Shown: piece after piece, positions 13,446-43,026 of the stretch
Numbering within the stretch: position 1 is the stretch's first letter
Layout of the letters: the number at the start of each line of letters is the position of its first letter
Source: a virus
Lineage: Duplodnaviria > Caudoviricetes
Length of the DNA stretch: 64,000 nt
IMG/VR virus record: IMGVR_UViG_3300044852_000015
Span: 1 to 64,000 of that record
Direction: 5' to 3' (one strand)
Position numbers and translations under genes: made by a program
The notes under the pieces: model-generated
Told to the model about the DNA's origin: nothing
Database searches by the model: none
The model's input: only the letters and a program-made list of their open reading frames with translations

Positions 13446-13448
13446 GGT

Positions 13449-13961: not shown

Positions 13962-13971
13962 GGCTCCCGTG

Positions 13972-14685
13972 ATGTCACAAACCCTCGTTGAAACCATTGC
14001 TCCGTTCTCTCCTGACCTGATTCGTCGTAACTTTACCGAACAGGGTTTAGTCTACGTCGTGGACTACGGTAACAGTCGGATCAAAGGTAAAGTGTTCCTG
14101 ACTTACCTCAGTAACCTCGACCTGCGTTACCACGTTCGCATTCGAAACGTTGAAGAAGCTTGTGAACTCCTGCAAGCGTACTTGACCTTGCCGATGCTGG
14201 TGAAAGTCCCTGAGTTGGAAGACACGGTGGTTGAAGTGTTGGCTGCGGCCAAAGGTTTGCCTCACAACCTGACTTTCGACCCAAGTGAGTTCATCGCTGC
14301 GAACCGTGAGATCATCGACCATTGGAATTCGGTAGTCGATTCGTTGGCGCTGTACGCTCTGTTCTGTCATGGTGAGGAACAGCACAAAGAGTTCATTGAA
14401 AGTCATGAAGTCGATGACACCAGTGATCCAGTGGGTAGTAACTTCGTCCACCTGTGCACTCACCCAAAGCTACCGTTGTTGATCAACCCGTGTCCTGAAC
14501 AACCAGTGAAGTTCTACTCCAAGTACTTCACGACCAACATGTTCCGTGGTCAGAACCTTTTCCACTTCTGGGGTAAAGCTGAAAACATGCTCTACGTCAG
14601 CTATGTGGCGATGGTAGAAGACCCGGCAGGTTTCCAACAATCCCACGATGCCCTTCAAGCGGCAGTACTGGAAAAGCATTCATAG
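13972..14685 (+). CDS. Hypothetical protein in the rSAM cluster
   Basis: Start moved to MSQTLVET, 10 nt after the previous stop. No recognisable motif. Confidence 0.7.
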   Translation: MSQTLVETIAPFSPDLIRRNFTEQGLVYVVDYGNSRIKGKVFLTYLSNLDLRYHVRIRNVEEACELLQAYLTLPMLVKVPELEDTVVEVLAAAKGLPHNLTFDPSEFIAANREIIDHWNSVVDSLALYALFCHGEEQHKEFIESHEVDDTSDPVGSNFVHLCTHPKLPLLINPCPEQPVKFYSKYFTTNMFRGQNLFHFWGKAENMLYVSYVAMVEDPAGFQQSHDALQAAVLEKHS

Positions 14686-14694
14686 GGGTACCGT

Positions 14695-15750
14695 ATGTTT
14701 CACTTAGTTGGTAAAGTTTTTCTTAAGCTGGAGACCGAACCTTACACCACACAACCACGTGCGGTGATCTCCAGTGAAGGTGTCTTCCCTATGGAAGTCA
14801 ACCTCGAAACCGTGTACCCGGACAAGCTCCGTATGAAGGCAGATCACGTCAGTGACATCTACCCTCATCGCATCATCGAGCTGATGGACGAAGCGGTGAA
14901 GCCGGAATGGCCTAAAGGGTTCACGATCTATTGCTGCCCTGAGTCGTACCGTACCTTGGCTGCGGCGTGGTACAAGGCACTGTTCCCGAACATCAGCCTG
15001 GAACTGTTCCTGATGCTGTTCAAAACTCAGTCGATCAAAGACGAGTTTTGTCCGATCGACTTCGACAGTCGTGGGGGTATCCAGAACGCTGCTGAGATCA
15101 TCACTGAAACGCAAGCCATCGAACTCTACGATACTGTGGAAGTTTCTTTGGAACTGCGTGACTGGATCAAAGCTCGTTACGCGGACCTGTCTGAAGAGTA
15201 CCTGTTGCTCAGCTACTTGAAGTACGGTAACTACCGTCCGTTCTTGCGCACGGCTAAACAGGTGGCCAACAAAACCATCCGTACGTTGATCAATGATGCC
15301 AAATACATCATGGCCGTTCATGCCCACACCCACCCTGCGTGTGAACGTGAAGCAATGGCGATCTTGCCGTCGGGTTGGGACCACGACCTACCTCGTGTTG
15401 GACCACAGTGTGCGACCAGTCGCTTCAAGTCCAAGACGACTCAACCGGTCGACATGACTGACCGCTGCCCGATCAAGTTCACTCGTGACCTGCGCATGTG
15501 GTTGGGTGAAGTGTTGGGCTACCGTGATGACGTCGTGGAACGTTATATGTCCCTGTTGCCTCTGACCGAATGGTTCGGCGTCCGTGCACAAGAAGTGGAT
15601 CTCACGGTGTTCTTGGAATACCTGCGCTCACCGTACTCCAACACCCAGCACTTCGTTAGCAGCAGCAAGCTCACTGCTAACATCCCGATGATCCACCGCT
15701 TCCTCGACATGTCCGATGCCCAATTGGCCACGATCGAATTCATCCATTAA
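14695..15750 (+). CDS. Hypothetical protein in the rSAM cluster
   Basis: 351-aa ORF with RBS AGGGG and tight operon spacing. Confidence 0.7.
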   Translation: MFHLVGKVFLKLETEPYTTQPRAVISSEGVFPMEVNLETVYPDKLRMKADHVSDIYPHRIIELMDEAVKPEWPKGFTIYCCPESYRTLAAAWYKALFPNISLELFLMLFKTQSIKDEFCPIDFDSRGGIQNAAEIITETQAIELYDTVEVSLELRDWIKARYADLSEEYLLLSYLKYGNYRPFLRTAKQVANKTIRTLINDAKYIMAVHAHTHPACEREAMAILPSGWDHDLPRVGPQCATSRFKSKTTQPVDMTDRCPIKFTRDLRMWLGEVLGYRDDVVERYMSLLPLTEWFGVRAQEVDLTVFLEYLRSPYSNTQHFVSSSKLTANIPMIHRFLDMSDAQLATIEFIH

Positions 15751-15764
15751 GTAAGGCCCTCCTG

Positions 15765-16772
15765 ATGACACAACTGATTCCGTTAAAGAACATCCTGACT
15801 CAGAAACGCGGTCCGGGTAAAGAAGTTCTGTTGATTCTGTTTGAGCGTTGTAATCTAACGTGTTCGTTTTGTCATCAGGACCACCAGTCTACCCTCGGGA
15901 TGGAAGACATCTATCGCAAAGCTGACGACTTGATTGCCAGCTACGACGGTAGCTCTGACTGGGTGGTGAACCTGACCGGTGGTGAGTTGTTCATGGACGA
16001 ACACCCTGACCACGTGTTTGGTCAGTACCTGATGTTGGTGCGTCGAATCAAAGCCGCTGTACCGACTGCGAAGTTCTGCTTCATCACCAACTTTGTGTTC
16101 ACCCGTGTGGCTTGGGTAGAGCGACTGTTGCGGATGTTGCGCTATGACAAAATTGAAGTAACCCTCGGGACTTCTTACGATCCTTGTGGTCGTTTTAACG
16201 CCGAGAACAAAGAGACGTTCTTCCGTAACTTGCAATACTTTAAGGAAGACGTCCAAACCATTTCCATGGTGCTGACCCGACAGAACATCAACTGGTTCTT
16301 GAAAGGTTCCACTGACGAGGTGTTTGACTACATCTACGACACTCACGGGATCTACTTTGACCAGTACACTCCGGGAGACGGCTACCGTCAGCATCAACCG
16401 ACTGATCGTGAACTTGCTGACCTGTACATCGAGATCAATCGACGCTATCCCAAGGTCGAACCTCTGCGCAGTTGGCGTGAGCAGTCCGTTAACGTGTCTA
16501 CCTGCCGTTCTACGGTTGTAGTGACACCAACGTCGCAAGTAACGACTTGTAGGTCGCTGGTGGGCTCTAACGCAGTCCTAGACGAAGCGCAGGGGGAGTT
16601 GATCAAACTCAAAGCTGAGGAGACTTTCCTCGAGCGTTACAACTGTTTGGAATGTGAGCACTACCAACGTTGTGGCTTGCGCTGTTTCCTCCACAGTGAA
16701 TTCCTCGAACCTTCACAGGACGAGTGTCACTTCAAAAGAATGTTCGACCAAATCCTGACCAAAGGTGCGTAA
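15765..16772 (+). CDS. Radical SAM protein 2 with C-terminal Cys cluster
   Basis: CNLTCSFC, TGGEL, and C-terminal CLECEHYQRCGLRC...C. Confidence 0.88.
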   Translation: MTQLIPLKNILTQKRGPGKEVLLILFERCNLTCSFCHQDHQSTLGMEDIYRKADDLIASYDGSSDWVVNLTGGELFMDEHPDHVFGQYLMLVRRIKAAVPTAKFCFITNFVFTRVAWVERLLRMLRYDKIEVTLGTSYDPCGRFNAENKETFFRNLQYFKEDVQTISMVLTRQNINWFLKGSTDEVFDYIYDTHGIYFDQYTPGDGYRQHQPTDRELADLYIEINRRYPKVEPLRSWREQSVNVSTCRSTVVVTPTSQVTTCRSLVGSNAVLDEAQGELIKLKAEETFLERYNCLECEHYQRCGLRCFLHSEFLEPSQDECHFKRMFDQILTKGA

Positions 16773-17860
16773 TGGATCTCATCGTTAAACCCACGCTGGC
16801 TTGCAACTACAAGTGTACGTTCTGCTCCAGCACCACCAATCCTGAGGGTGCTAAAGTCGTACTCGATCTGGACATGGTGAGACGGTTTATCGTTCGCTAC
16901 CCAGAGACTCAGGTGATCATCATTAATGGTGGCGATCCCCTGATGGTGGAACCACAGTACTACTGGGACCTGATTGCGATACTGGATGACCTCAAGTCTC
17001 CGGCTAAGCTGTCGTTCACCAGTAACCTGTGGGCCTATTACAAGAAGCCTTCGATGTGGGTGGAGTTGTTTAACCATCCACGAGTTGGTGTAGGGACTTC
17101 GTTTCAATACGGCGATGCTCGGTTGAAGGGCGACTTGAAGCCTTTCACTGAGGACGAGTTCTGGGCGATCTCTGACATGTTCCTCCGGGACGTTGGGGAA
17201 CGCTTGGACTTCATTGCGGTGATTGACCAGTCAAACGCAGACACCGTTATTCGGACCGTAGAGTTAGCTCGTGACATGAACGTCGTGGCGAAGATCAACC
17301 CTGCGTTCAGTTCAGGTGAGCAAGTGGTGTCTCGGGGTATCACCATGGGGAATGCGGGTTCCGCTTTTCTGCTGGCTGACATCTACGCCAAGTACGTAGA
17401 GATCCATGAAGCAGGACTAACTGAATGGGAATACAACACCACTCAGTTGACTCACCGTTTAAGAGACGGTCGGACTTCGTGTCCACAGAACCGAGAGTGT
17501 GACTCAGGTATCCGTAACTTGGAACCGAATGGTCAGTACAACTCCTGTGGTAGTTTCGGGGATGACAAACTCTATTTGATTGACTTTGAGTCAGAGATGG
17601 CTGGTGGTTTCAGTCGTCCACTTCAAGTCCCTGAGTTACTGTCCATGAAAGACAGTTGCTTCAGTTGTCCGATGTTTGCTATCTGCAACGGTTGCCGTAA
17701 AACCATCCACGATCACAAGTCGTTAGGGATGGTGGAGTCACACTGTCGCAAGATGAAAACCCTCGCCCCCAAGATCATTGCAATGAATGGCTTGACTGGT
17801 GTGTTGGAACCTACTCCGTACGTCGATGAGTCTGTCTCGGACCTAATCTTTAAAGGATGA
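16772..17860 (+). CDS. Radical SAM/SPASM-domain protein 3
   Basis: CNYKCTFC, NGGDP, and CPQNREC...SC...CFSCPMFAICNGC...C. Start at the TAATG overlap (16772). Confidence 0.9.
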   Translation: MDLIVKPTLACNYKCTFCSSTTNPEGAKVVLDLDMVRRFIVRYPETQVIIINGGDPLMVEPQYYWDLIAILDDLKSPAKLSFTSNLWAYYKKPSMWVELFNHPRVGVGTSFQYGDARLKGDLKPFTEDEFWAISDMFLRDVGERLDFIAVIDQSNADTVIRTVELARDMNVVAKINPAFSSGEQVVSRGITMGNAGSAFLLADIYAKYVEIHEAGLTEWEYNTTQLTHRLRDGRTSCPQNRECDSGIRNLEPNGQYNSCGSFGDDKLYLIDFESEMAGGFSRPLQVPELLSMKDSCFSCPMFAICNGCRKTIHDHKSLGMVESHCRKMKTLAPKIIAMNGLTGVLEPTPYVDESVSDLIFKG

Positions 17861-17863
17861 GCT

Positions 17864-18961
17864 ATGAACAGTTACACGAACTTCAATCCAAACACAGCGT
17901 TCGATTTGATCTTGGAAATCACGCAAGGGTGTAAGCACAGTTGCACCGGGTGTTTGGTAGACACCAATGGAAGTTTGTGGCCTTCTGAAGACGACTTCGG
18001 AAAGCTCCGTGGTTTGGTGACTGACATGGTGGCCAACGGAATGCGTCCTAGTGTGTTGACGCTAGGGCCTACCGACATCCTGTCTGCGGGTAATCTGGTA
18101 GAGTGTTTCACCGACCCGCACATCAAAGCCATGGCTGACTCTTTTGAAGAGTTGGAGATAGGTTGTACGTTCCTCTCCACTGGGGAGCAGGGTTATCGTC
18201 ACTTGGCACAATTGGTGGATCACCTGATGCCGGGTAAGACGGTGAACTTCAACGTTCCGTTCGAGATCAACCACCTCGGGAATGAGAAATACATTCAAGG
18301 GATCAAGAAACGCATTGCACAGTTTGCGGGTTACTTGCAATCTGCTCGGTTGGGTGAAGTCCAGTGTCAAGCCCAGTTCGATGTCGGTGCCTCTGACGTC
18401 CCACAAGACCTCATAGAGCTGTTTGCCGCCGCTAAGCTGACACACATCCACGATGAACAAGCCGCTGTGTTTACGTTACCTCACGGGCGTCGTGACCTTA
18501 ATGAGTTAATGAACCGCAGCAACTTCATTCGCTCAGCGCAGATCCTCGCCGACTACCAGATCGGTACGGTGGGTGTCCCCGAGGATGAAGACCGCCAGAT
18601 CATGGAGTTGATGTACCGTAATGGGAAACTCTATTACCGTCCTTTCCTCGTGACTGAGATCGTGGTACTGGACCGTGCCTTTGAAGTCCGTGGTCCGTGG
18701 TTGTTCAATCAGATGGTGGCGTTCAAACAAGCTCGGATGATCGGTGGCTTTGAAGACGCCATGAAACACCCTCTCTGTAACAGTTGCCCTCAGATGGGTC
18801 AGTGTGGTGAACGCGGTATTCATCAGTTACAGAAACTTATTAACTTCGACGGTTGCTTAACCGCTCTGCGCAAGGTATCGGAAAATGTCCCTAGTACAGG
18901 ATCACGCTCGGCACTTCGACCTACAGCTCGACTTAACCATCGGGTGTCGGAATCGCTGTAA
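17864..18961 (+). CDS. Atypical radical SAM-like protein 4
   Basis: CKHSCTGC, with GPTD in place of the GGE motif, and C-terminal CNSCPQMGQC...C. Confidence 0.75.
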   Translation: MNSYTNFNPNTAFDLILEITQGCKHSCTGCLVDTNGSLWPSEDDFGKLRGLVTDMVANGMRPSVLTLGPTDILSAGNLVECFTDPHIKAMADSFEELEIGCTFLSTGEQGYRHLAQLVDHLMPGKTVNFNVPFEINHLGNEKYIQGIKKRIAQFAGYLQSARLGEVQCQAQFDVGASDVPQDLIELFAAAKLTHIHDEQAAVFTLPHGRRDLNELMNRSNFIRSAQILADYQIGTVGVPEDEDRQIMELMYRNGKLYYRPFLVTEIVVLDRAFEVRGPWLFNQMVAFKQARMIGGFEDAMKHPLCNSCPQMGQCGERGIHQLQKLINFDGCLTALRKVSENVPSTGSRSALRPTARLNHRVSESL

Positions 18962-19961
18962 CGGTTGTAAGGTTGATCTGGACGGTACTCAGTATCCTCC
19001 GATGGATGACTGGGTTAAATTCAAGAAACTGGTGGTGTCAGTAGAGGCCGCAGGAATGCACCCGTATGACCTGATCTTAGGTCCCACAGACATCCTCACT
19101 TCGGCTAACCGTGAAGAAGTGATGAATGACTTCCGCATGGTGGATCTGCTCCAACACTTTAAGTTCCTGTCGATCACTTGTGGGTTCTTGAGTACGGACT
19201 TACAGGAGTACGAGTGGTTGGCACGGCAACTGAATGTCATTATGCCGGGCAAAGGGTTGACGCTCACCATTCCTATTAAAGTGGGGTACCTGAACAACCC
19301 GAAGTACACCCAAGGTATCCGTGACCGTCTGAAGTATTTCACTGACCAGTTGATTGACATTACCTTAAACGAGGTGGTGACTACGGTGGTGTACGACGAG
19401 CAAGAGGTCTACAAGATCTCCACTCAGGAACACGTTAACCTCGACATGATCACTCAGTCCCTCGGGGTTCACTTCGGTCGTAAGAAAGACATCGACTTTG
19501 TGATCCACCACGGTCGTGAAGGTTTTGCTAACTTGCTCAATCGTGATCGGTTCTTACGCTCTGCTCGCAGTCTGGCGCTGGTCACTCGTGACGCCAAAGA
19601 GAGCCTGCCGGAATACGGCATAAAAGAAACCAACGACATGGTTCCTCATGAAGGTCGTGACACTACGGTGATCTACAACAATGGGCGCCTGTACCACCGT
19701 CCGTTCTTGATGGAACACTTACCTTACTTCGATCCAATCTTTGAAGTTAAAGGTGAGTGGGTAGCGAACACCCTGATCGAAGAGCGTAGTGAGCAATTGG
19801 TAGAAGGCCTCACGTTCGCTGTAGAGCACCCTCTGTGTAAAGGTTGCCCTGCCATGACTCTGTGTGCTGATCGTGGCGTACACGCGATTATGAAGCACCT
19901 CGGAGCCCAAGAGTGCATCACTGACCTAAACCAAAGCTTGGAGGGTATCTCGTGGACGTAA
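18885..19961 (+). CDS. Atypical radical SAM-like protein 5 (paralogue of protein 4)
   Basis: CRNRCNGC, LGPTDIL, and C-terminal CKGCPAMTLC...C. Confidence 0.75.
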   Translation: MSLVQDHARHFDLQLDLTIGCRNRCNGCKVDLDGTQYPPMDDWVKFKKLVVSVEAAGMHPYDLILGPTDILTSANREEVMNDFRMVDLLQHFKFLSITCGFLSTDLQEYEWLARQLNVIMPGKGLTLTIPIKVGYLNNPKYTQGIRDRLKYFTDQLIDITLNEVVTTVVYDEQEVYKISTQEHVNLDMITQSLGVHFGRKKDIDFVIHHGREGFANLLNRDRFLRSARSLALVTRDAKESLPEYGIKETNDMVPHEGRDTTVIYNNGRLYHRPFLMEHLPYFDPIFEVKGEWVANTLIEERSEQLVEGLTFAVEHPLCKGCPAMTLCADRGVHAIMKHLGAQECITDLNQSLEGISWT

Positions 19962-20446
19962 TTCAGCCGTGGACTATCGCCATCGGTCGCTTTGATCTCG
20001 GGACTTCGTGTACTGAGACTTCCTTTTATGGTGAGTTGGAACATTCCCGCATTAGACCCAGGGTGTGGGAGTACGTGGAAAAGGTGTTCGACAAACACGA
20101 CTCCAGTTGGTTGGTGAATCGCAATACCGTCCTGCGCAAGTTGTCACCTAACCAAATGAAAGACCCGGAGGTCAGTCGGGGTGGGTTCTTGACTTCGTTG
20201 TTGTGTCTTGTGGAGTCCGATGCTGAGATTGTACTGATGGACCCTCGGTCGTTTATCCAACGGGGAATTCCACCAGAGATCCAAGCGCTCACCACGGGTA
20301 ACCATGTGATCCGTCCCAAGCTGGGTGAGTTGTATGTGTTTCCGTCCTACGTCACGGTTTACGTGAGACCCGGTAAGTTGGGTCGGACTGACCTGATCTG
20401 TGATTACGATTACGACAAACCCCGCACCGAACGGGATAACCTCTAA
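19952..20446 (+). CDS. Degenerate 2OG-Fe(II) oxygenase-like protein, apparently lacking the metal ligands
   Basis: Aligns with the next ORF (IQPW, MDPR, P..G.LY.FPSY) but has no HxH and no distal His. Confidence 0.6.
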   Translation: MDVIQPWTIAIGRFDLGTSCTETSFYGELEHSRIRPRVWEYVEKVFDKHDSSWLVNRNTVLRKLSPNQMKDPEVSRGGFLTSLLCLVESDAEIVLMDPRSFIQRGIPPEIQALTTGNHVIRPKLGELYVFPSYVTVYVRPGKLGRTDLICDYDYDKPRTERDNL

Positions 20447-20455
20447 GGGGTACGT

Positions 20456-21013
20456 ATGGAACTGATACAACCGTGGCAAACCACCATCCTGAAACATAAC
20501 GTGTCGGATGAAGTAGACTTGGAACAACTGGTGACTGAACTGATCACCACCAGTAATTTAACCGAGACTGCACACAAAGCTCGCACTACCGCAGAACGTA
20601 ACCCGTATGCAACGGCGGTGCGAGACACGGTGGTAACTCCGAAAGCACAAGCGTACATCGAGCAGGTGTACGGGCTGGTGACAGAACACAAACTGTACTC
20701 CACCGGTTCTTTCGGTAAGCTGGTAACAGACGGCTCAGGAATGGACCCACACGCTCACCCTACGACGTTCCTGTCCGCAGTGTTGTACTTGGACGACTCC
20801 GATGCCACGATGGCTATAATGGACCCTAGACGTTGTCAACAACGAGCCCTGCCTCGTGAGATCCATGCGTTCGATAACGACTTCTACAACATCCTCCCAC
20901 GTGCTGGCGACTTGTACCTGTTCCCCAGTTACCTGCTCCACCTAGTACGTGCTTCCAAACCCGGCTTCCGGTTGTCCTTCGTGACGGACTACCGCTTCGA
21001 ATCAGAGTACTGA
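20456..21013 (+). CDS. 2OG-Fe(II) oxygenase (TIGR02466-like)
   Basis: HAHP..LSAVLYL...PRAGDLYLFPSYLLHLV...RLSF provides the HxH...H triad plus the Arg. Confidence 0.75.
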   Translation: MELIQPWQTTILKHNVSDEVDLEQLVTELITTSNLTETAHKARTTAERNPYATAVRDTVVTPKAQAYIEQVYGLVTEHKLYSTGSFGKLVTDGSGMDPHAHPTTFLSAVLYLDDSDATMAIMDPRRCQQRALPREIHAFDNDFYNILPRAGDLYLFPSYLLHLVRASKPGFRLSFVTDYRFESEY

Positions 21014-21014
21014 C

Positions 21015-22385
21015 ATGCAAACCAAACCACCGATCATCCTCAGTCTGAATCCAACATATTACTGTAACTTCAGTTGTTCCTTCTGTTACTTGACCCCAGC
21101 ACAACTGAATGACCGCAAACTGTTGGACCTGAACAAACTGGAAACCCGACTGGATGAGATCTTGGAACACTACTCGATTGAGTGGGTGGACATCTACGGT
21201 GGTGAGGTTCTGCTGTTACCTGACGTTTACCTCTCAGCACTCGTGGCGTTACTGAAGACTAAACAAGTGGGCGGGATAGGTTTGAACACCAACCTCTCAC
21301 TGATCAAGGACATCGTCTTCGATCCAGCGGTACACGTGTCGGTGAGTTACGATTTCGAGGCGAGGGAGAAACACGAGTTAGTGTTCGCTAATATGGCGAA
21401 GCTGACCAACCCATTCTCGGTGCTGTTGTTGGGGAGTCCTGCGTTACTCAAGAAGCCTGCTGGTGAAATCATCACGGCGCTTAACACGTTCCCCAACTTG
21501 GTAACTGTAGAAGTCAAACCCTACAGTCCGAACAGTGCCAACGACTTACCCGTCACCTATAACCAGTTCGAGAACTTCGTTAAGGACTTGATTATCTGTG
21601 ACGTTCCAAAGCGGTTTAGTCTGACCAATGAAACGCTGATCCAAGAAGCCTTGACGGGTCTGCGCAATGCCTACTCGGATAACCATTTGTACATCACCCC
21701 TCGTGGTCGATACGCCGTGTTGGAGTTTGACTCTCAGGATCGTGAGTACTTCTTGGAGTACACTGACCTGACGAAATACTTCGAGTGGTGTGCTCAAGAG
21801 AAAGCCAAAGTAGCGGTCAACTCGTACTGTGGGTCATGTGAGTTTAAAGGACGGTGCCTGTCCGAACACTTGCGTGACGTCACGACTTTAGAGACAGGTT
21901 GCAACGGTGGCTATCACTTGCTCAAATGGGCAGAAGACCGTCAGCGTCCTAAAGAATGGAAGATCTACCAACAGGTTTACAATCGGTTGGTGTCTGAACA
22001 CTCCGATGACTTCGCCAAGGTGGAGTACATCGAAGCTGAAGAACTGGTGGAGAACGCGCTACACTATTTCCGTGAGGCTACGTTCCCACTGATCTACCCG
22101 GCCAAGTCTTACGCAGCGGCCATCGTCTACGCCACCTTAATAGAGCAAACCTACGGGTATCCTTTGAGAGAGTCGTTAAACGATGACGACTTGTTCCTAG
22201 GTCAAGACGCTTACTTCGTGCCTTACCGTAAGAACCCAGACGCCTACGAGGCCATCCTCAAACGTTTGGAAACCTTCCCAGATTGGCTGACCTCAGGGTG
22301 GGCTCCTCGCACGGCAGAGTACTTCCGTCTGGAGTGTACCGAGGACGGGATCAACGAAGTCAACGCTAACCTGATTAGTCAATAA
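21015..22385 (+). CDS. Radical SAM protein 6 with a fused ~150-aa C-terminal domain
   Basis: CNFSCSFC, YGGEV and CGSCEFKGRC...C, followed by an extra helical region (YPAKSYAAAIVYA...). Confidence 0.85.
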   Translation: MQTKPPIILSLNPTYYCNFSCSFCYLTPAQLNDRKLLDLNKLETRLDEILEHYSIEWVDIYGGEVLLLPDVYLSALVALLKTKQVGGIGLNTNLSLIKDIVFDPAVHVSVSYDFEAREKHELVFANMAKLTNPFSVLLLGSPALLKKPAGEIITALNTFPNLVTVEVKPYSPNSANDLPVTYNQFENFVKDLIICDVPKRFSLTNETLIQEALTGLRNAYSDNHLYITPRGRYAVLEFDSQDREYFLEYTDLTKYFEWCAQEKAKVAVNSYCGSCEFKGRCLSEHLRDVTTLETGCNGGYHLLKWAEDRQRPKEWKIYQQVYNRLVSEHSDDFAKVEYIEAEELVENALHYFREATFPLIYPAKSYAAAIVYATLIEQTYGYPLRESLNDDDLFLGQDAYFVPYRKNPDAYEAILKRLETFPDWLTSGWAPRTAEYFRLECTEDGINEVNANLISQ

Positions 22386-25974: not shown

Positions 25975-26841
25975 TTAACCGTTGTTAGCACTCACGTAGT
26001 CGGCGTCAGACAGCAACGGCTCGGTAGCACCCAGTTCGATGTCCTGAGTGAAGCCTTTGTTGGTGAAGGCTACGGAGTGGTGAGTGGTAATGAAGGAGTT
26101 GATCTGACAGGCGATCACTTCTTTCATGTTGAACTGCGTGTTACCAGGACCTTGAACAGTCAGGGTACGGTCAACACCGGAGCACAGACCGATCTCGGAG
26201 ATCACGGCGTAGGCTTCGTTGTCGAACAGAATGCGGCAAGCGTCGATCAGTTCCTTTACGTCCTCGGCACTGAAGATCAGTGTCAGGATGCTGGAGGTCG
26301 ACAGATAATCACCAGACGAACTGATCACACCGGTGTTCGACATCACAGGTGGTGTCGGGTTCAGGTTGGCCAGGTTCGGTACGTACGGTTCGGTGTTCTT
26401 CAACTCACCGTCGACGATCGTGTGGTTGATAGCCGGAGCAGTGCTCGCCAAGCTGATGCGCTTGAGGTAGTACGCCCAGTAGTTAGTGCCACCGATGTTG
26501 AGCAACACCCGCAGAGCGTAACGACCACGAGCGACGACGTCTAGGTCATTGTCGACACGGCGCAGCACAAAAGGCAGATGACGATAAAGAGCAGCGTCGG
26601 AAGCTCGGTGTGGCAAAGGAGATGTGTAAGGAACGCCATCAGCACCTACCATGTTCTTATGGCCACCGTTACCGATACAGTAGTACTGCATCGCGGGGCG
26701 TTCTGTGGTAGCCAGCTCTTCGTCAACAAAGACGTTGAACTTTTCGTTGAGCGTGGTGTGGTCCAGAATCGTTGGGCGTTGACCCAGAAGCAATGAGGTC
26801 TGAAGGCTGGAGCCCCAGACACTACGGGTAATTGTTTTCAT
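25975..26841 (-). CDS. Virion structural protein (conserved phiKZ-like, next to RuvC)
   Basis: Start moved to MKTITRS. Contains IGNGGH and ISEIGLCSG motifs like myophage baseplate/tail proteins. Confidence 0.6.
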   Translation of the reverse strand: MKTITRSVWGSSLQTSLLLGQRPTILDHTTLNEKFNVFVDEELATTERPAMQYYCIGNGGHKNMVGADGVPYTSPLPHRASDAALYRHLPFVLRRVDNDLDVVARGRYALRVLLNIGGTNYWAYYLKRISLASTAPAINHTIVDGELKNTEPYVPNLANLNPTPPVMSNTGVISSSGDYLSTSSILTLIFSAEDVKELIDACRILFDNEAYAVISEIGLCSGVDRTLTVQGPGNTQFNMKEVIACQINSFITTHHSVAFTNKGFTQDIELGATEPLLSDADYVSANNG

Positions 26842-28875: not shown

Positions 28876-31662
28876 TTATTCAGGTTGTTTTAGCACCAAC
28901 CCATATTGACGTTTGATAACGACCATAGCTTCCAAGTTGTCGGCGTAAGTAAGCCCATCCAACTGCGGCAACAGTGCGATTACATCCGGCACCTCAGGGT
29001 AGTCCAGACCGTCCATCTCAGGGATCAAATTCAATCGACGTCTAGTGTCCATGTAATCGAACCCAAGGCCAACATCTTCGATCTCCAATTCAGGTAGGAG
29101 TGGTGGGTAATCCAACCCCGTCGCGATAGCAGCAATCACCAACGGCTGCTGTACCGGTTCGTACTCAAACCCAGACAGTGTAGCACTTACGTTCAACTCA
29201 CCCTCTGGTGGCGTGTAGTCGAACCCGTCCTGCTCCTCTACCAACTCAAGGTGAGGCGGAACAATCACATATGTAAACCCATCTAGTGTTTCAGACAGTA
29301 CCATTGCTGGAACAGGAGTCGGACTGTAGTCGAACCCATTAGGTTGAACCAAAGTCAAAGCTGTTTCATCAAAGACTGGGTAATCCAACCCGTTGACGGT
29401 GATCTCTTCCCACGGAATGTCCGGAGTTGGAGCGTAGTCAAAACCATCTAAGTGAGGAATTACCAGAGTCGTACGGATGTGTTTGTATTCACCAATGTTA
29501 CCCGGCGCCATCGACAGGTACAGATACTCAGGGATCGCTTGTTGATTGATGATGTCATCCAATTCCAAAGGCACAGCCTCAGGCATTGAGAAGTACACCG
29601 TCGGGATCGTCAGACGCATGGAGAACTTGGAATAGCCGTCAGCAGCGAAGTTAACCGTATGGTCCCACTTACCACTGTCACCGCGTTCACCAGCACTATT
29701 GGTCATCTCGAATGTAGCGTTATCGAGAGTCTCTTCGATCCGGTCAGAACCTTGACCATCAGCATTCTGCACGTAGATGTTAGCCTGATGCAGATGCATG
29801 TCCCCACTACCGTCACCGTCCTGATCGCCCAAACGAATGGCTGACCAATTCAACGACAGCATGTTAGTACCGCGCAGCTCACTCAAGAACTGCACCGAGT
29901 AACTGCTCAACTGGGTCATCAAGCGAATCATTGCAGCCTGAAGCTCTGCAAGGCTCACTGTGACGTGCAAGCTGGTTCCGGTGGTCAGTGACAAGAGACT
30001 GGTGTAGAGCAGCTCAAACTCCGCCTTAGAGAAGTTTGACACATCCAATTGATGTTCCCGCAACCATTGGTCGTAGGTAATCTGGGTGCCGTTATCGAGC
30101 TGACAGTTCTTGTTCTGATACAGGTGCAACGCAGCCGCTTCAGCTTGGCCGCGAGACTCGTAATGTTCCTGACTGGTGTAGATCCAGTTGTGCTCTTTCC
30201 AAGCCACGTGGATCTCTTTACACTTGTCGTAGAACGCTTCCACAGAAACCAAGTCATTCAAGACGGGTTGGTCTTTTAGTAGAGCATCCAGTACGGCATC
30301 AGGAACCCGTTCGACCTCAGTGATCTTACGTAGGTCTGCACGCGTGGGTAGGAACTGTTTACGAACCATGACTGCATCGGGATTCGGAACGTACACCAAG
30401 TCCTGCCCCAGTGCCCGGTTCAACGCATAGATAAACAGAATGAATGCGTCTTTAGCGTTGTACCACAACTGGTCGCCGGTCAGTGGGTTGTCAAACGAGA
30501 TAATCGTCTTGTACCAACCTTCCTGTGCAAAGTACAGCCAGTGGTTCAACAGCACGTCAGAGAACGTCAGTGCGTAATCGTTACTGCGATCGACTACCGA
30601 AGACTCAAGCATTTTCGTCTTGAGGCGGTTACTCGAACTGTTCGTCATCTTCTCAGTGACTTCAGCAATCGTCGCATCAATCTGATCGTAGTTACCCGGT
30701 GCAATCGGAGCCGCACGGTTCACGATCTCAGTAACGGAGAACGTGTCAATCGGGTTGCCACTCGCAAAGCGCGTGAGGTCGACTCGCTTAACTTCTACAG
30801 TCGGATACAAGTTGTCCGGTTGAGCACTTACGTTATGATGTAAATTGAACTCAGCCACCGGCAACATGCGGTGCGTCATGATTTTGTCGACCAACCACTT
30901 GAAGGTATCCTGTTTACCAGCATTGCGCTGGATGTACAGAATGTTCCTATAAAGGAAGAGCATCTGCTCTTTATCCAAGTGGGAGATATACGCATCCAGT
31001 CTCCCGTGACTGGCTAGGTATTGTCGGATGTGAAAGCTGTGCACTTGTTCCGTGTGGCAGTTAGTGAGCCGCGCGTCCTCAATGAACAGGGGCAGGTTCA
31101 AATACAGGATTGCTAAGTGAGCCGCTGGGTAGAGGTCGTCCACCATAACGAACTCAGCCACGTTGTACCGAAGCATGAATGCGTCGATACGATCTTGGAT
31201 CTGGCTAACCAGGGAGGTTTCATTCTCTTCGATCAAGAACTGGTCGATGTAGAGGATCTTACCATCTGGGGCTGCAATCGCTGTAGCAAGGTCCACAGGA
31301 TTTAAGATACCGTGAATCAGATCTCTCTGAGTCGGGTATCGTGCAACCAATTGATCATAGAAACGTGTACCGAAAGCGTAGTCCCGCAAAGTTCTGCGAT
31401 GTACTGAAAGCGTTTGGACATCGAAGGAGATCTCTTCACGAGTATCCAACGACGTCACTGTCATCGGTGTGTCAGTCGAGTGATAGCGACCCGATAGGTT
31501 GAGGTAGTACTTCCAGGTGGTTGGATCGTCCTCATCGACGTCCAGTCCCCGGTCGTTCAACCCAACGTTCATCGCGCTAGCAGTCGCTTCACTCTTGATG
31601 ACAATCGTTTTCGCCATGGTTAACATGGAGTCAACGTAGAGTCTGTAGTAAGCGTTGGACAC
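28876..31662 (-). CDS. Large virion (baseplate-region) protein with C-terminal G[FL]xY repeats
   Basis: GTG at 31662 with RBS GGAGG. Contains the WKYYLNLSG.YH motif and about 11 C-terminal repeats. Divergent from the putative portal, as recalled for phiKZ gp128/gp129. Confidence 0.7.
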   Translation of the reverse strand: MSNAYYRLYVDSMLTMAKTIVIKSEATASAMNVGLNDRGLDVDEDDPTTWKYYLNLSGRYHSTDTPMTVTSLDTREEISFDVQTLSVHRRTLRDYAFGTRFYDQLVARYPTQRDLIHGILNPVDLATAIAAPDGKILYIDQFLIEENETSLVSQIQDRIDAFMLRYNVAEFVMVDDLYPAAHLAILYLNLPLFIEDARLTNCHTEQVHSFHIRQYLASHGRLDAYISHLDKEQMLFLYRNILYIQRNAGKQDTFKWLVDKIMTHRMLPVAEFNLHHNVSAQPDNLYPTVEVKRVDLTRFASGNPIDTFSVTEIVNRAAPIAPGNYDQIDATIAEVTEKMTNSSSNRLKTKMLESSVVDRSNDYALTFSDVLLNHWLYFAQEGWYKTIISFDNPLTGDQLWYNAKDAFILFIYALNRALGQDLVYVPNPDAVMVRKQFLPTRADLRKITEVERVPDAVLDALLKDQPVLNDLVSVEAFYDKCKEIHVAWKEHNWIYTSQEHYESRGQAEAAALHLYQNKNCQLDNGTQITYDQWLREHQLDVSNFSKAEFELLYTSLLSLTTGTSLHVTVSLAELQAAMIRLMTQLSSYSVQFLSELRGTNMLSLNWSAIRLGDQDGDGSGDMHLHQANIYVQNADGQGSDRIEETLDNATFEMTNSAGERGDSGKWDHTVNFAADGYSKFSMRLTIPTVYFSMPEAVPLELDDIINQQAIPEYLYLSMAPGNIGEYKHIRTTLVIPHLDGFDYAPTPDIPWEEITVNGLDYPVFDETALTLVQPNGFDYSPTPVPAMVLSETLDGFTYVIVPPHLELVEEQDGFDYTPPEGELNVSATLSGFEYEPVQQPLVIAAIATGLDYPPLLPELEIEDVGLGFDYMDTRRRLNLIPEMDGLDYPEVPDVIALLPQLDGLTYADNLEAMVVIKRQYGLVLKQPE

Positions 31663-37564: not shown

Positions 37565-39235
37565 TTACTTGGTATATTGGATTTTACGTTGAACTTCGTC
37601 GATCAACGGTCTGAACTTCTCACTACGCACAACCCGATAGTTCGAGTCATACTGCACGCACGTACCGATACGTGTCCGACCATCTGGACTGGCTTTCGGT
37701 AAGTTGTTATACGAACCGATCTCCACGATAGACGAATGGAGCAATTTGGAAGCGTCAGTTGCAGCCGACTTACCACTGTTACGTCCGGTGCCAGTGGCAC
37801 TGGTCTGTGGGACCAAGTTGGACGTGATCTTGAAGTACATGTTATCCCCAGGACTGGAGATACCTGCCACCTCACCGTGTTGACGGTTGATCTTGGTGAT
37901 AGCATCCAAAGTGAGGTTCCGGCGCAGTGCCAGATTGATTTCCTCTTTGATCTTTGGTTTGCGTGCTGCTTTCTGAAGTGCAAACTTGAAGTGGGAGATA
38001 GCCTTGTTGATGTCGAACAGCGCATAGCGCAAGACCATCAACTCTTTATCGTACATCGTGGATTCCACGTTGTCCGACTGGATCACCATCTCAGACAGTG
38101 CTCCAATGATAAACGCAAACAGCTCGTACACGTCGTTTACCAGGATATTCTCACTTCGTAGGTCCAACCGTGATCGTTCATCCAAGGACTCATCCAAGGA
38201 TTCGATGTGGTTCTCGACCTCTTCCGCCAACTTACCTTCACTTTGATTGGACCCAAAGATCAGGTGACCCAGCAGAATACGCCAAAGACGCGTGCTGTTG
38301 ATGAACTCTGGTTCTACGCGTTGCGGGAAATGATCCACCACGTAGAAGAAGCCAGCAACTAGACCAACGTTCTTGGTATTCCACGAAGCACGAGGAATCG
38401 CCATCCGCAAGTTACTTGCGATGTAGCCAATCCGACGCATTCCCCGCAGGGTTCGTGGACACATCTGTTTCGAGCCGCAGATAACCCATTCAGACTTCGG
38501 ATAGAGGTCATAGTTGACTTCATCCGGGTAACCCACATGGACGTCTGTGTTAGACACCATTTTGAAGGTCTGGGTGACACCATACTTACTGAACAAGTAG
38601 TGCGCCATTGTGTGTTTTGCTGTGATACGGTTTTTCGAGTTTGCTCCCTTCTCAGGGCTACGATTGTAAACAGTGGCCCACGCCACGTTTGCAGTTTCAT
38701 TCCATGCCGTCTCTCCGCCGTTGTCAGCCACGTCGAACATCCGGAACGTATGGTCAAGCCGTTCAAAGGTAAGCTTCGTTACCTGCAACGGAATGAATAT
38801 CGTGTTAACCCCATAGCTAATAGCCCGATCAGCCAAAACTGGACTGATGCTAAATGTACTGCCACGAATTGTAATCAACCCCGCCTGACGGACAAAGGGT
38901 AAATACATGTAGCGCTTCAGCAGTGGTTCCTTAACCCCTGTCTTGGGATCAGTGTAGCTGAAGTTGTACTCCACCAGAAACAAATCGGATCGCGCAATGT
39001 CGAACACTGGCTTACCGGTACGCTTCGGTGTAATCTCGTTGAACTCTTCCTGAGGAGTGCAACGGCGACAGTTCTCGTATTTCAAGCCCTCTGGGAAGCT
39101 TTTCGAAATACTCCTGAACAAACCATCCACGTAGCGTTCAACGCCACGCATCTGCTCTACCGCAAGACCAGACATGATCTTATCGTTAAAGCGCGGGATA
39201 GCCCGTTCGACCAAGTTGAAGAAGTGGTTGTCCAT
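37565..39235 (-). CDS. Non-virion RNA polymerase beta-like subunit (phiKZ gp123-like)
   Basis: YMYLPFV...G.ITIRGSTFSISPVLAD resembles the RpoB N-terminal motif, and LHSS.VE.GS...P..R lies near the end. Two genes from the capsid gene, as in phiKZ. Confidence 0.7.
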   Translation of the reverse strand: MDNHFFNLVERAIPRFNDKIMSGLAVEQMRGVERYVDGLFRSISKSFPEGLKYENCRRCTPQEEFNEITPKRTGKPVFDIARSDLFLVEYNFSYTDPKTGVKEPLLKRYMYLPFVRQAGLITIRGSTFSISPVLADRAISYGVNTIFIPLQVTKLTFERLDHTFRMFDVADNGGETAWNETANVAWATVYNRSPEKGANSKNRITAKHTMAHYLFSKYGVTQTFKMVSNTDVHVGYPDEVNYDLYPKSEWVICGSKQMCPRTLRGMRRIGYIASNLRMAIPRASWNTKNVGLVAGFFYVVDHFPQRVEPEFINSTRLWRILLGHLIFGSNQSEGKLAEEVENHIESLDESLDERSRLDLRSENILVNDVYELFAFIIGALSEMVIQSDNVESTMYDKELMVLRYALFDINKAISHFKFALQKAARKPKIKEEINLALRRNLTLDAITKINRQHGEVAGISSPGDNMYFKITSNLVPQTSATGTGRNSGKSAATDASKLLHSSIVEIGSYNNLPKASPDGRTRIGTCVQYDSNYRVVRSEKFRPLIDEVQRKIQYTK

Positions 39236-39260: not shown

Positions 39261-40433
39261 CTACTTGAAAGCTAGAAAGAGAGCCGCAATGCCTGTGGCA
39301 ATGGCTGGAACCCATTTAAGAAACTCCGAAGCATCCTTCCGTACGTGACTTCGTTCTTCATAGTGGTCTTTACGCTCTAGTGCTGCAATGCTCCGCAGGT
39401 GCTCCACTCGCGTTTGTTCCTCCTTGAGTCTTGCTCCGGCTTCGTTAATACGAGCCTCCTCAAGTTTCCACCGATGCTCCTGTGCTTTGCGATCGCTTTC
39501 CTCCGCTAAACGTCTCTGTTCGAGATCTCTTCTCCATGTCTCAAACTCCTCCTCGCGATCCAACCTTTCGCTTTTCATGCGAATCTCTTGAGCTTTTAGG
39601 TCATGAGCTAAGATTTCGAGTTCTCGTTTCTTCTCTGCTGCGGTGTCTCCCAACACTAAAGCTTCTTCGTAGGTCTTGAACATACCAAGACACGCTTCTG
39701 CTTCAGGGAATGCGAAGTACTCCGCCCGAGGCTTCCCAACACCACCACTCTCACTCACAGGACAGGTCGAAGCGCGATACACGCCACTGAGCCTACCCTG
39801 ATCTTTGACGGGTTGGACTAGGTAGATCTCCTTATTAATGTTAATGTAACGTGGCCCAAAGATGTCTTCGTTGTCAACGATTTGTAGACTGTAGCCCACC
39901 ACTCCTGCTGTATTGATAGTTTCGTTATCGGCCACTAGGCGGTTACGGACGCCGTCCTGACTAAATGGATGATGCGGGACATAGCCCCCGACCATCGTGG
40001 AAACCACGACGTCTAGGTTGACTAAGTAAAGGGAGCCTCCATTACGTTGTACTTCGTCCTCATCTACTCCATAATCCACTTGGGCGAAACACTGGCCCAT
40101 GCGCTGCCTGACACTACCGCTGAGTACTGCATCGCGTAATGCTCTCATGCCTTCAGACGTTGCATTGGATAGTCGTTCTACGTCAATATTTACACCGGCT
40201 CGATACTTGATCGTGTAGCGTACTATGAACTTGCTCAGGCCTCGTACGTTCATCGGCTGAATAACGAGGGGCATACCAGAGCGATCAACCATTGTAACGG
40301 CCTTGCGAAAGCCGTTAAAGAACTCCTTCTCTATGGAAAGCTGGGAACCGGGTCCAAGATCCAGAATACCTGGAACTTCAACTAGCGGCGCTTCATGGTT
40401 AATGAGTTGGTTATTGGGAATGTACTGGCTCAT
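39261..40433 (-). CDS. Hypothetical protein with a C-terminal coiled coil and membrane anchor
   Basis: E/R/K-rich helix followed by WVPAIATGIAALFLAFK. First gene after an early-type promoter. Confidence 0.7.
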   Translation of the reverse strand: MSQYIPNNQLINHEAPLVEVPGILDLGPGSQLSIEKEFFNGFRKAVTMVDRSGMPLVIQPMNVRGLSKFIVRYTIKYRAGVNIDVERLSNATSEGMRALRDAVLSGSVRQRMGQCFAQVDYGVDEDEVQRNGGSLYLVNLDVVVSTMVGGYVPHHPFSQDGVRNRLVADNETINTAGVVGYSLQIVDNEDIFGPRYININKEIYLVQPVKDQGRLSGVYRASTCPVSESGGVGKPRAEYFAFPEAEACLGMFKTYEEALVLGDTAAEKKRELEILAHDLKAQEIRMKSERLDREEEFETWRRDLEQRRLAEESDRKAQEHRWKLEEARINEAGARLKEEQTRVEHLRSIAALERKDHYEERSHVRKDASEFLKWVPAIATGIAALFLAFK

Positions 40434-40486
40434 CGGTATTTCCACTCAATCAGGTATTATCCCTTGATAATCCTCTTCTTAGTACA

Positions 40487-40524: not shown

Positions 40525-40569
40525 CGGCATAAAAGGAATCCCCCTGAGCCCGAAGGCCCAGGGAGTTCC
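40525..40569 (-). terminator. Terminator of the major capsid gene
   Basis: Minus strand GGAACTCCCTGGGCC-TTCG-GGCTCAGGGGGATTCC-TTTTATGCCG. Confidence 0.8.
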
Positions 40570-40677
40570 AGTGTCCCCACTTAAAGGACTCCCCTCAGTA
40601 ACCTAAGTCACTAAGGTGATGCAACGATCACTAGACCGGAAAGTCGAGTGGTTACCACCAAATCAGCAAGCCTCTGC

Positions 40678-42873
40678 TTAGGGGGCCACCGCGATCTTGT
40701 GAGTAAGCACTGCTTCCAGGCCTTTCACTTTGATGATCGCCATTACCGGCAGGTGGTTGATCTGGAGGTTACGTGGTTGAACCATGGCCTCTGGATAGGT
40801 ACCACCGTCGCGCTGAACCATCATGCTCGAAGCCAGCTCAGGAATCCAGGCGTGAACGCCGAAGGTGAGTGGGTCGATGCCTTCGACTTGACCGGTACGG
40901 GTCAGGGCGATGACGATGGTGTCCTTCATACGGCTGTCGAACGAAGATTCGATTTGGTATTCAGGGAACGCGATACCGAAGGTGCGGCTGTCGCCGACGA
41001 CCATCAGGTGACGTTGCAGAACTACGTCGGTACCGATCAGCAGTTTCGGCTGCTGAGAACCACCAACGGCGGCGTTCAGAGCTGGCTGGTAGCCCGAGTC
41101 ACGGTACATGCGGTACGACACGTCACGAATGGCGTTAACCAGGATCGCGTTGATGTCTTCTGCACGGTCCATGTCACGGATCGACGATACCTGCGATTCC
41201 AGGTCGATTTCTTTCTCTTCGAAGAAAGGCTTGACCAGGAAACGACCGACGCCTTCCACTTCTGGAATGGTGTCGTTACGCTTGACGCTGACCGCGTAAG
41301 CACGCAGGGTTTCTGCGTAGTTCAGCAGGCGGGTCACAGCGTTGTTGGTGTTACGAACGCGAGCAGCGCTGATCAGTGCTTCCAGGTCACGTGCATCACG
41401 GTTGCTACCGGCTGGCGAAGGAGCCGAGATCGGAGCGCCCAGTGGGATGTGGAAACGGAAGGTGCGATCGTTGGTATCGAGCAGCAGGCCGCGAGTACGA
41501 CGGTTGCTGTTGGTACGCGAAGCTTTCAGCTCGTAAGCAACTACCTTGGAACCAGCCAGGGCAGTAACGATAGCAGCACCAGCACCAGCGGTCAGGCTGA
41601 TGTCAACGCCGTCTTTGTTCACGATGCTGTCAACGACTACAGGCGAGCTGTAAACGCGACCGTTACCCAGTTGGGTATCGAACTCACCGTTCAGGTTCAC
41701 GGCCAGACGAACAGTCAGTTCACCCGACACGACGCCAGCCAGTACGTCCGGCACTACGCCAGCAACGTTCTTGGTGTTGGCATCCAGAACCAAATCCGAA
41801 GTACGGAAGTTCAGGTTCATCTCGCGGTTTGCACCTTCAACCGACTTGACGAAGTGGCTGCGAGCCAGACGACGAGTGGTGAAAGCAATTACGTCAGCGC
41901 CGTCAGCGTCAGGACCAGCAGCGTCGATCTGGATGTAGATCTTGTCCAGGCCAATGCTGTTGTCGATTGCGTCGGTGTGGTCGATCACGCCAGCGCCGAT
42001 CAGACCTGGGTGCTGGGACAGACCGAGCAGGTTCAGTTCCTGGTTGATGGCCAGAGGCGCGGTGGTCACGTCAACGTTGGAGATGCGACGGATTTCACGA
42101 GCCAGCAGAGCTTCGTCGATGAACATGTCGGCGTTGGAGCCGTTGGCCAGAACCACTGGAACCAGAGCAGTGCTCTCGTCAGCCAGGATGGTGTAGTCCA
42201 TTGCCGCGTCAACCAGGTTCTTACGATTCCAGTTGGTGGCCTTACCGGTGTTGCTGTGCTGGATGGCGTTGTGCACCAGGGTGCGACGAACGGTGATGTC
42301 CAGGCCGCCTTGTTCTGGCGGAACAACGGTAGTTGGGTAGAACATTTCCGAGAAGCTGTCCTGAACCGACGCCTTCACGTTGAACGCGATGGAGTAAGGC
42401 AGGAACTTGGCCAGTTCACGTTCGTCGAAGGATTCCAGCGACGGAGTGTCACGGGTATCAACCGAACCAGCGGCGCCAGTGGAGCCGATGTCAACAACGC
42501 CGTCAATGCCAGCGCCTTGTTCAGCCTGGGAGCGCATAGCTACGTCGGCGTAAGCGGCAGGGTCGCCTGCGGCCATGGCTGCGATCGCACCGGCTTCCAG
42601 TTGGGTTTCGGTCAGCTCTTCGCCGCTGTCTTCGCCGTCTTCCATCGAAGGGCGCAGGGCTTTGAACGCGTCACGGATTTCGGAAGACAGGTCTTTACAG
42701 ACGCGGGACAGTTCACTGTGGCCGCCTTCGTCCAGGGATTCCATGGAGATCAGGTTGGCAGTAGTGCCTTTGGAGGCGAACTCGCTACCTTGGGTAGCAA
42801 CGGTTTGCTTCAGCGCAGAAACCACGTTAGCCAGCGCCGAGCCAGCGGAACCTTTGTATTTCAGAAGTGACAT
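40678..42873 (-). CDS. Major capsid protein (phiKZ gp120-like)
   Basis: 731 aa from MSLLKYK (RBS AAGGA), with strongly biased codon use. Acidic propeptide with SME/SLE sites; FYPTTVV and RTRGLLLD motifs. Sits between DnaB and nvRNAP beta. Confidence 0.85.
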   Translation of the reverse strand: MSLLKYKGSAGSALANVVSALKQTVATQGSEFASKGTTANLISMESLDEGGHSELSRVCKDLSSEIRDAFKALRPSMEDGEDSGEELTETQLEAGAIAAMAAGDPAAYADVAMRSQAEQGAGIDGVVDIGSTGAAGSVDTRDTPSLESFDERELAKFLPYSIAFNVKASVQDSFSEMFYPTTVVPPEQGGLDITVRRTLVHNAIQHSNTGKATNWNRKNLVDAAMDYTILADESTALVPVVLANGSNADMFIDEALLAREIRRISNVDVTTAPLAINQELNLLGLSQHPGLIGAGVIDHTDAIDNSIGLDKIYIQIDAAGPDADGADVIAFTTRRLARSHFVKSVEGANREMNLNFRTSDLVLDANTKNVAGVVPDVLAGVVSGELTVRLAVNLNGEFDTQLGNGRVYSSPVVVDSIVNKDGVDISLTAGAGAAIVTALAGSKVVAYELKASRTNSNRRTRGLLLDTNDRTFRFHIPLGAPISAPSPAGSNRDARDLEALISAARVRNTNNAVTRLLNYAETLRAYAVSVKRNDTIPEVEGVGRFLVKPFFEEKEIDLESQVSSIRDMDRAEDINAILVNAIRDVSYRMYRDSGYQPALNAAVGGSQQPKLLIGTDVVLQRHLMVVGDSRTFGIAFPEYQIESSFDSRMKDTIVIALTRTGQVEGIDPLTFGVHAWIPELASSMMVQRDGGTYPEAMVQPRNLQINHLPVMAIIKVKGLEAVLTHKIAVAP

Positions 42874-43026
42874 GTTTGAGTCCTTACTTATCGGATAAGT
42901 ATAAGTGGGGTGGAATCGGCATTCTGCCTTTACCAATTGCGACCACAACGTATTTTGTTATAGCTGCTATATAATTAAACAGATTTCACAAAACTATTGA
43001 AAAGGTCATTGAAACATAGAATATAT

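Follow-up and report, generated by a model that had tools for sequence, protein, structure and literature searches.

Does translation of the major capsid protein of this phage always end at the stop codon that closes its gene? The DNA analyzed here, hereafter the window, is a 64,000-nt stretch of an uncultured phiKZ-like giant phage (IMG/VR record IMGVR_UViG_3300044852_000015), the full genome of which (C1) spans 238 kb. Its major capsid protein gene lies on the minus strand and ends GCC CCC TAA (stop at 40680-40678). A first-pass annotation, made from the letters alone, had proposed that a programmed +1 frameshift at this CCC-stop appends a short tail resembling the end of a second virion protein. 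The gene end was as described, and so was the +1 frame, which runs from AAG through 22 sense codons to a TAG stop at 40613-40611. As judged by comparison with related sequences, this +1 tail is protein-coding, kept in phase and under purifying selection. We further consider it very likely, from the same comparison, that tail and capsid protein form one fused product. The explanation that we favor, and hold to be probable, is that some capsid subunits gain by frameshifting a tail that carries a motif of the baseplate wedge protein, giving a 753-aa minor form beside a 731-aa major form.

The assignment of the capsid gene is firm. Its product matches the PhiKZ_MCP family (Pfam PF25620) over the full length of the profile and above the curated cut-off (E 5.9e-213; 709 bits, cut-off 27; profile positions 1-634 of 635), and its relatives in the PDB include phiKZ gp120 (8y6v). 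The open reading frame (ORF) is open from a TTG at 42948 (40678-42948, minus strand). Capsid homologues, however, are 721-730 aa long, hence the ATG at 42873 is most likely the start.

An open frame of 22 codons has a probability of ~0.35 of arising by chance. A lone frame of this length is thus not beyond chance, and its significance rests on conservation and on a profile match to the wedge protein. Relatives of the locus were drawn from IMG/VR (L001-L013), from JGI and NCBI metagenomes (L015-L024), and, for the further ones, from Logan contigs that encode capsid homologues. The tail set comprises 14 distinct sequences, that is, the window and 13 relatives from separate metagenomes with a capsid identity of 80-97%. 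A +1 ORF of 19-25 codons directly follows the TAA stop in all 14. The first-pass annotation had proposed checking relatives for conservation of both the CCC-stop and the +1 ORF; the ORF was retained throughout the set, but CCC was found only in the nearest subclade. The tail has a conserved core, L-x-[ED]-[LM]-V-x-x-T-R-L-x-G-L, lacks a start codon of its own, and in relatives terminates 3-5 codons past this core. Across the set, six or seven residues stay the same although each is encoded by 3-5 synonymous codons.

The pattern of substitution is that of a translated sequence. In a codon alignment of 11 sequences, seven tail residues are invariant and each is written with 3-5 synonymous codons: valine and threonine with all four, arginine with five (from both codon families), and one leucine with five. 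These data were evaluated by a column-shuffle test (20,000 shuffles) that leaves each column and the sequences' relatedness intact while scrambling codon phase. The synonymous excess was 42 in the +1 frame vs 17 and 15 in the other frames, a result matched in one of the 20,000 shuffles, and no shuffle reached as many as seven invariant multi-codon columns. Repeating the test with 14 sequences and a 16-codon core gave an excess of 35 vs 13 and 8 (1/20,000 shuffles). The pooled ratio of nonsynonymous to synonymous changes (pN/pS) of the tail is 0.49 in the +1 frame vs 0.80 and 1.56 in the other two, and stops interrupt these two frames in most sequences.

Phase is preserved as well. With one exception, the indels on both sides of the capsid stop are multiples of three, and the residues right after the stop vary solely in whole-codon steps. 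In one variant (L083-L086), deletions of 24 nt and 15 nt flank the stop on its upstream and downstream side, respectively, yet CCG TAA G is kept and the tail remains in +1. Upstream of the stop, the +1 frame is open for 15-20 codons in sequences with the tail vs 1-8 codons in tail-less relatives. Collectively, the synonymous signature, the phase of the indels, and the open upstream frame argue that the stretch is translated in the +1 frame.

Could the conservation instead stem from a structured 3' untranslated region, with a hairpin in the T-R-L-x-G-L codons and nothing translated? A hairpin of 7-8 bp over these codons is possible in most sequences, with few compensatory changes; RNAalifold, however, returned only 4-bp helices there with little covariation, and in L004 and L019 the hairpin is broken although the peptide is kept. 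Third-position variation, whole-codon indels, and a match to a protein-motif profile would all be unexpected of an RNA element, and we regard this explanation as close to refuted. Stronger support was obtained for a hairpin with covariation that spans the +1 stop codon (40618-40591); compensatory changes occur among relatives, with both-side changes in 10 pairs (RNAalifold, 11 sequences), but it gives no account of the coding signature. It is likewise very improbable that the tail is a recently disabled, decaying remnant of an ancestral in-frame capsid tail. In-frame tails in distant relatives and the loss of the tail in L003 and in the clades at 65-75% identity would suit such decay, yet the out-of-frame layout is common to lineages up to 20% apart in capsid protein, and the 14 sequences carry many synonymous and no disabling changes. 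Within the subclade with CAA TAA G, the conserved core (E to V) differs at synonymous sites only.

The tail is a start-less +1 ORF under purifying selection and in fixed phase with the gene upstream. Among the aligned relatives, no conserved start codon was found either in the tail ORF or in the +1 frame upstream of it. Fusion of the tail to the capsid protein is very likely because there is no conserved start, because phase is kept to the capsid stop, and because distant relatives have in-frame tails. The alternative of a separate 20-residue peptide, made for example by re-initiation after TAA and unfused to the capsid protein, is quite improbable. Such a peptide would account for an ORF that is clearly coding, and ATG, GTG or TTG stands at codons 5-9 of some sequences, in one variant with AAGGAG just before an ATG. 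Nevertheless, no position holds a conserved start, and the invariant Leu and Val columns are often written with non-start codons. The residues ahead of any possible start change by whole codons, relatives have a related tail as an in-frame part of the capsid protein, and a strict stop-plus-one phase would be needless for a separate gene.

The tail motif also occurs in a baseplate protein. The protein in question matches PHIKZ128 (PDB 9xqs_C) at E 1.6e-124 over residues 7-627, and the neighbors of its gene match PHIKZ127, gp129, gp139, and gp140; homology to PHIKZ128 together with synteny with gp127, gp129, and gp139 homologues identifies it as a phiKZ gp128-type wedge protein. In phiKZ, the wedge protein of the baseplate is gp128, which connects two copies of gp87 and touches the gp139 band of the outer baseplate (2026 phiKZ atlas, PMC13250141). 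The window protein has ~200 C-terminal residues beyond its phiKZ counterpart, which consist of repeats and a terminal motif. The first-pass annotation had aligned the capsid tail without gaps to the last part of this protein, and we recovered the same alignment, with identity at 7 of 15 positions. The likeness is far stronger in relatives than within the window itself: the C-termini of the gp128 homologues from the relatives' genomes carry, in frame, a motif nearly identical to the capsid +1 tail. A profile of eight wedge C-terminal motifs detected the capsid +1 ORF at E 2.9e-5, and this was the sole significant non-self match among 9,976 six-frame stop-to-stop segments of the 238-kb genome (next match, E 0.43). 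In the genome of the window, the motif is present at two places only, the capsid tail and the wedge end, and each lies 11 residues from a stop. AlphaFold2 prediction of the wedge repeat region (6-row alignment) gave no confident fold (mean predicted local distance difference test score of 35); this model would be compatible with disorder or with a string of linear motifs. Structural look-alikes of the repeat region in the ESM Atlas were dismissed, as their scores of ~0.8 are at chance level.

Across clades, the capsid tail and the wedge motif appear to vary together, as far as three clades checked by sequence can tell. The window clade combines a +1 tail of T-R-L-x-G-L type with the same motif at the wedge C-terminus. 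The capsid proteins of Xanthomonas phages RTH11 and LucasX end in frame in L-[DN]-G-L-K-Y-P plus two residues, and the RTH11 wedge protein has ~8 L-x-Y-P repeats that this tail resembles. In phage EL, the tail lies in the -1/+2 frame after CCG TGA, and its heptapeptide P-A-N-Y-G-R-L recurs in the last of three terminal N/D-Y-G-R-L wedge repeats. The tail is absent in the clades at 65-75% identity; in the 65%-identity clade, the wedge protein is 728-762 aa long and without repeats. An in-frame fusion of the tail in relatives, which the first-pass annotation had named as a possible check, was thus borne out in a related form and in more distant capsid homologues, including RTH11 and LucasX. In addition, 18 of 120 capsid homologues at 50-57% identity carry, in frame, a terminal [YWF]-L-x-G-[LI] and a proline near the stop. 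Past the TGA of gp120 in phiKZ (AF399011.1, L090) lie 26 in-frame codons, which encode two Y-L-E-[ND]-G motifs, ahead of the terminator. When the 120 capsid homologues were searched with a wedge-repeat profile, the top three matches were extreme C-termini, at an E of only 0.07-0.2. A scan of IMG/VR with an in-frame-tail capsid protein as query found nothing. Xoo-sp14 (L038) is an exception, with a Gly-rich capsid tail, an unrelated C-terminal domain in the wedge protein, and no match between the two. In the capsid proteins of Xoo-sp14, P0120, and P0122, a 40-residue Gly/Asn/Thr-rich in-frame tail replaces the motif, and many other capsid homologues have acidic Thr/Pro-rich tails with proline at the end; the C-terminus of the capsid protein appears to serve broadly as a display site.

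A wider reading is that phiKZ-like jumbo phages of the nucleus-forming type routinely give a controlled minority of their capsid subunits a wedge-repeat tag by clade-specific decoding. We hold it only tentatively and would put its chances at a little short of even. The clades would get there in different ways: +1 shifting here, -1/+2 shifting in EL, read-through of UGA in phiKZ, and plain fusion in frame in RTH11 and LucasX. Tag and wedge repeats would co-evolve because both bind one putative partner at head and baseplate.

Where does the frame change? The codon before TAA varies among the 14 sequences: six have CCC TAA R (window included), six CCG TAA G, and two CAA TAA G. By contrast, TAA directly follows the last sense codon in every one of them, so that a slow A-site codon, the stop, is always present at the shift site. 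Judging from the open upstream frame, the shift must take place within the last 15-20 codons of the capsid gene. The stop itself is the likeliest place, since the tail has stayed in phase with it through every rearrangement and opens in all cases with an AAR codon that overlaps TAA. The features conserved in the alignment are an A-site stop followed by a purine, mostly together with a C-terminal proline. A C-terminal proline slows termination, and the +1 shift of antizyme at a stop is not known to require re-pairing.

It is also conceivable that the extended protein is real but that the frame changes at the RNA level: the phage polymerase or an editing step would omit a base close to the stop, for example in the run of five C that the window has within GGCCCCCTAA, and ribosomes would read the tail in frame. 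phiKZ-type phages transcribe their late genes with their own unusual polymerase, a homologue of an nvRNAP subunit being encoded at 37565-39235 (match to phrog_2943). A change in the RNA would also explain why codon re-pairing is not conserved. Nevertheless, relatives have only CCC, CCG or CAA before TAA and no homopolymer of at least six nucleotides as in known slippage sites, and we consider this route improbable. A quadruplet-decoding or suppressor tRNA was rejected as a candidate: ARAGORN identified eight ordinary tRNAs and, at relaxed settings, noise only. Rfam gave seven tRNA matches in the RNA island, and no 8-nt anticodon loop reading UAAG or UAAA was found in a tRNA context in the phage genome. 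No other gene of the genome that ends in a CCN codon and a stop is followed by a +1 ORF of note. CCC TAA closes one further ORF only, which lies outside the window (C1 95663-97135, minus strand) and has a +1 frame open for 14 codons.

In the ribosomal mechanism that we favor, some of the ribosomes that pause on the final sense codon, with the A site occupied by UAA, would advance by one base, read AAG as lysine, and then translate 21 further codons. The product would be the 753-aa capsid protein, as a minor form beside the 731-aa protein. Both the ribosomal nature of the shift at the stop and the minority status of the extended form are what we infer. The added peptide would be a short linear motif that is found also at the C-terminus of the gp128-type wedge protein, and the most economical reading of its role is a shared docking or recognition tag. 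Such a tag might let one putative partner, be it a fiber, a decoration protein or an assembly factor, bind at the baseplate periphery as well as at a few capsomer centers. The phiKZ capsid protein's C-terminal arms meet at the hexamer center and, in pentons, bind an exterior protein (PMC11297242). A tail at the meeting point of the arms would therefore be both exposed and crowded, which fits substoichiometric display. A low shift efficiency would fit a shell of ~1,500 subunits with arms crowded at the capsomer centers (PMC11297242).

Candidate partners were considered. The 988-aa fiber-like protein (7178-10144) was set aside since it has no relative in RTH11 or LucasX. The radical S-adenosylmethionine (rSAM)/oxygenase cluster and the homologues of gp139, gp130, gp157, and gp161 were rejected since they are present in all clades and uncorrelated with the tail. 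The rSAM/oxygenase cluster (window 11884-22385) occurs in the tail-less 65% clade too, at 27-62% identity; ORF 14695-15750 of the cluster had no match in the three genomes compared. The gp139 homologue (DUF7208, PF23838) lies at 25975-26841 on the minus strand, and its start in the ORF list (TTG) is 16 codons too early; phiKZ gp139 is the protein that forms the band linking the wedge and the outer baseplate. Prediction of a complex between a dimer of the gp139 homologue and the C-terminal 66 residues of the wedge protein scored 0.02, a value that speaks neither for nor against binding.

Several observations weigh against a frameshifted capsid tail that serves as a wedge-type tag, and we set them out together. 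Firstly, the P-site codon is not conserved. Re-pairing in +1 (CCC, then U) is available in the window and five relatives and is absent in the six sequences with CCG and the two with CAA, which cannot re-pair in +1. Since these relatives keep the tail, CCC-to-CCU re-pairing cannot be the whole, or the conserved, mechanism. Secondly, TAAG is the commonest stop context of the genome (59 of 271 ORFs) and hence not obviously a weak stop. No stimulatory structure was found at a fixed distance, nor a conserved one within 25 nt after the stop (RNAalifold, 11 sequences), and a Shine-Dalgarno-like GAGGTG 3 nt before CCC occurs only in L001, the others having a weak AAGAG or GGTGG. With TAAG the commonest stop context, and with neither a conserved stimulator nor a UAAG-reading tRNA, the shift efficiency is probably low. 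Thirdly, two close relatives depart from the pattern. L003 (91% capsid identity) has no tail but has a wedge protein with two copies of the motif. L078 (Logan SRR20000441 contig) reads ATC CCG TGA CC... at the end of the capsid gene, and its tail is identical but lies in the -1/+2 frame; this arrangement is that of phage EL (CCG TGA, tail in +2), and it represents either a very recent loss or else a switch of recoding mode. Fourthly, no partner emerged by presence and absence: 71 ORFs of an 80%-clade genome are absent from two tail-less 65%-clade genomes, a set too large to point to any one of them. Fifthly, a weak 10-residue profile of the distant in-frame tails gave no significant match in the genome to the +1 ORF or to the wedge repeats, and the apparent link between the tail of the window clade and those distant tails is visual only. 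Lastly, all sequences of the set are metagenomic.

Features of the locus and of the wedge gene are listed below.

Table. Position, strand, and basis of the features discussed (window coordinates)
Feature	Position	Strand	Basis or detail
Major capsid protein gene (PhiKZ_MCP family)	40678..42873	-	731 aa from ATG at 42873
Proposed shift site CCC TAA G	40677..40683	-	CCC 40683-40681, TAA 40680-40678, G 40677
+1-frame extension (tail), 22 sense codons	40614..40679	-	codon alignment and shuffle tests
TAG closing the +1 extension	40611..40613	-	sequence
Hairpin overlapping the +1 stop codon	40591..40618	-	RNAalifold, 11 sequences, alignment columns 84-111
17-nt element GTCCTTTAAGTGGGGAC	40573..40589	-	single occurrence in the 238-kb genome
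Intrinsic terminator (GC-rich hairpin and T-run), then TATG late-promoter-like motif	40531..40563	-	sequence
Baseplate wedge protein, phiKZ gp128 homologue, 933 aa	28876..31677	-	PDB 9xqs_C PHIKZ128
Tandem 18-residue repeats (~10), D/N-G-[FL]-x-Y core	28942..29475	-	invariant G, F/L, Y, and L columns
Motif at the wedge C-terminus that resembles the capsid +1 tail	28879..28938	-	alignment and profile match

At the proposed shift site, G 40677 completes the first +1 codon AAG (40679-40677), which overlaps the capsid stop TAA. Downstream of the tail, the element GTCCTTTAAGTGGGGAC is kept just 3' of the capsid gene in all clades examined, tail-less clades included; it may form a 4-bp hairpin with a 9-nt loop. 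The position of the terminator region is conserved in relatives. Adjoining the terminator T-run, TTTTATGCC (40529-40536, minus strand) is kept in all relatives and precedes gene 39261-40445; we take it to resemble the TATG late-promoter motif of phiKZ.

How does this locus compare with known systems? In T7 and T3, gene 10A/10B likewise places on the shell a minority of capsid protein with a frameshift-encoded C-terminal extension, which in T7 10B is 53 aa long. Their shift, however, is -1 at a slippery heptamer, and the T7 extension is not known to have a counterpart elsewhere in the virion. Bacillus phage SPP1 makes gp17.1*, a substoichiometric form with an FN3-like domain, by a +1 shift at the end of the tail tube gene; here too a +1 shift would occur at the end of a major structural gene, but the SPP1 product is a folded domain on the tail tube rather than a capsid tag. 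In phage EL, a phiKZ-type capsid gene is similarly followed by a short coding extension equal to a wedge repeat, although in -1/+2 instead of +1. phiKZ shares codons following the capsid stop, which there are in frame after TGA, whereas here the recoding would be +1 and the motif sequence is clade-specific.

Listeria phages form a further precedent. The major tail gene tsh of PSA, A118, and A500 is described as having a +1 shift at CCC_UGA (Zimmer 2003; Dorscht 2009; as given in PMC5009743). The first-pass annotation had invoked PSA as a CCC-stop precedent; this is apt for its tail gene, but the PSA capsid gene cps is described as shifting at CCC_UCC with a pseudoknot (PMC5009743). The window shares with these phages a CCC followed by a stop, a pattern known to favor shifting. 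As in them, +1 shifting at a proline codon that stands at, or next to, the end of a structural gene would produce a minor extended virion protein. The differences are that the stop here is UAA, that half of the relatives have CCG and one subclade CAA, and that the product would be a linear motif of 19-25 residues, not a folded domain, in a phiKZ-like jumbo phage of Gram-negative type. Antizyme (UCC_UGA), prfB (CUU_UGA), and E. coli pheL (CCC_UGA) also have a stop in the A site as the slow step of a +1 shift; the same source gives UCC_UGA as the antizyme site and 15% +1 shifting for pheL (PMC5009743). These cases are regulatory or incidental and have defined stimulators (a Shine-Dalgarno-like element, a pseudoknot, polyamines), whereas we found no conserved stimulator.

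Frameshift-extended capsid proteins as such are therefore already known, from T7 10B and PSA. New here would be a +1 route with a non-conserved P-site codon and the identity of the tail with the terminus of a wedge protein; in the literature, we found no published description of frameshifting in a phiKZ-type capsid gene. If the favored explanation is true, the most abundant virion protein in a large group of jumbo phages has an unannotated second product, and both the annotation and the cryo-EM (cryogenic electron microscopy) models of phiKZ-type capsids miss a component. A +1 shift at a stop codon that tolerates CCC, CCG, and CAA in the P site would be a natural case, in a bacterial system, of shifting without re-pairing. 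The 15-residue peptide would offer a concrete handle for pulling out the putative partner, and the presence of the same tag on capsid and wedge points to an unrecognized attachment system that the two would share.

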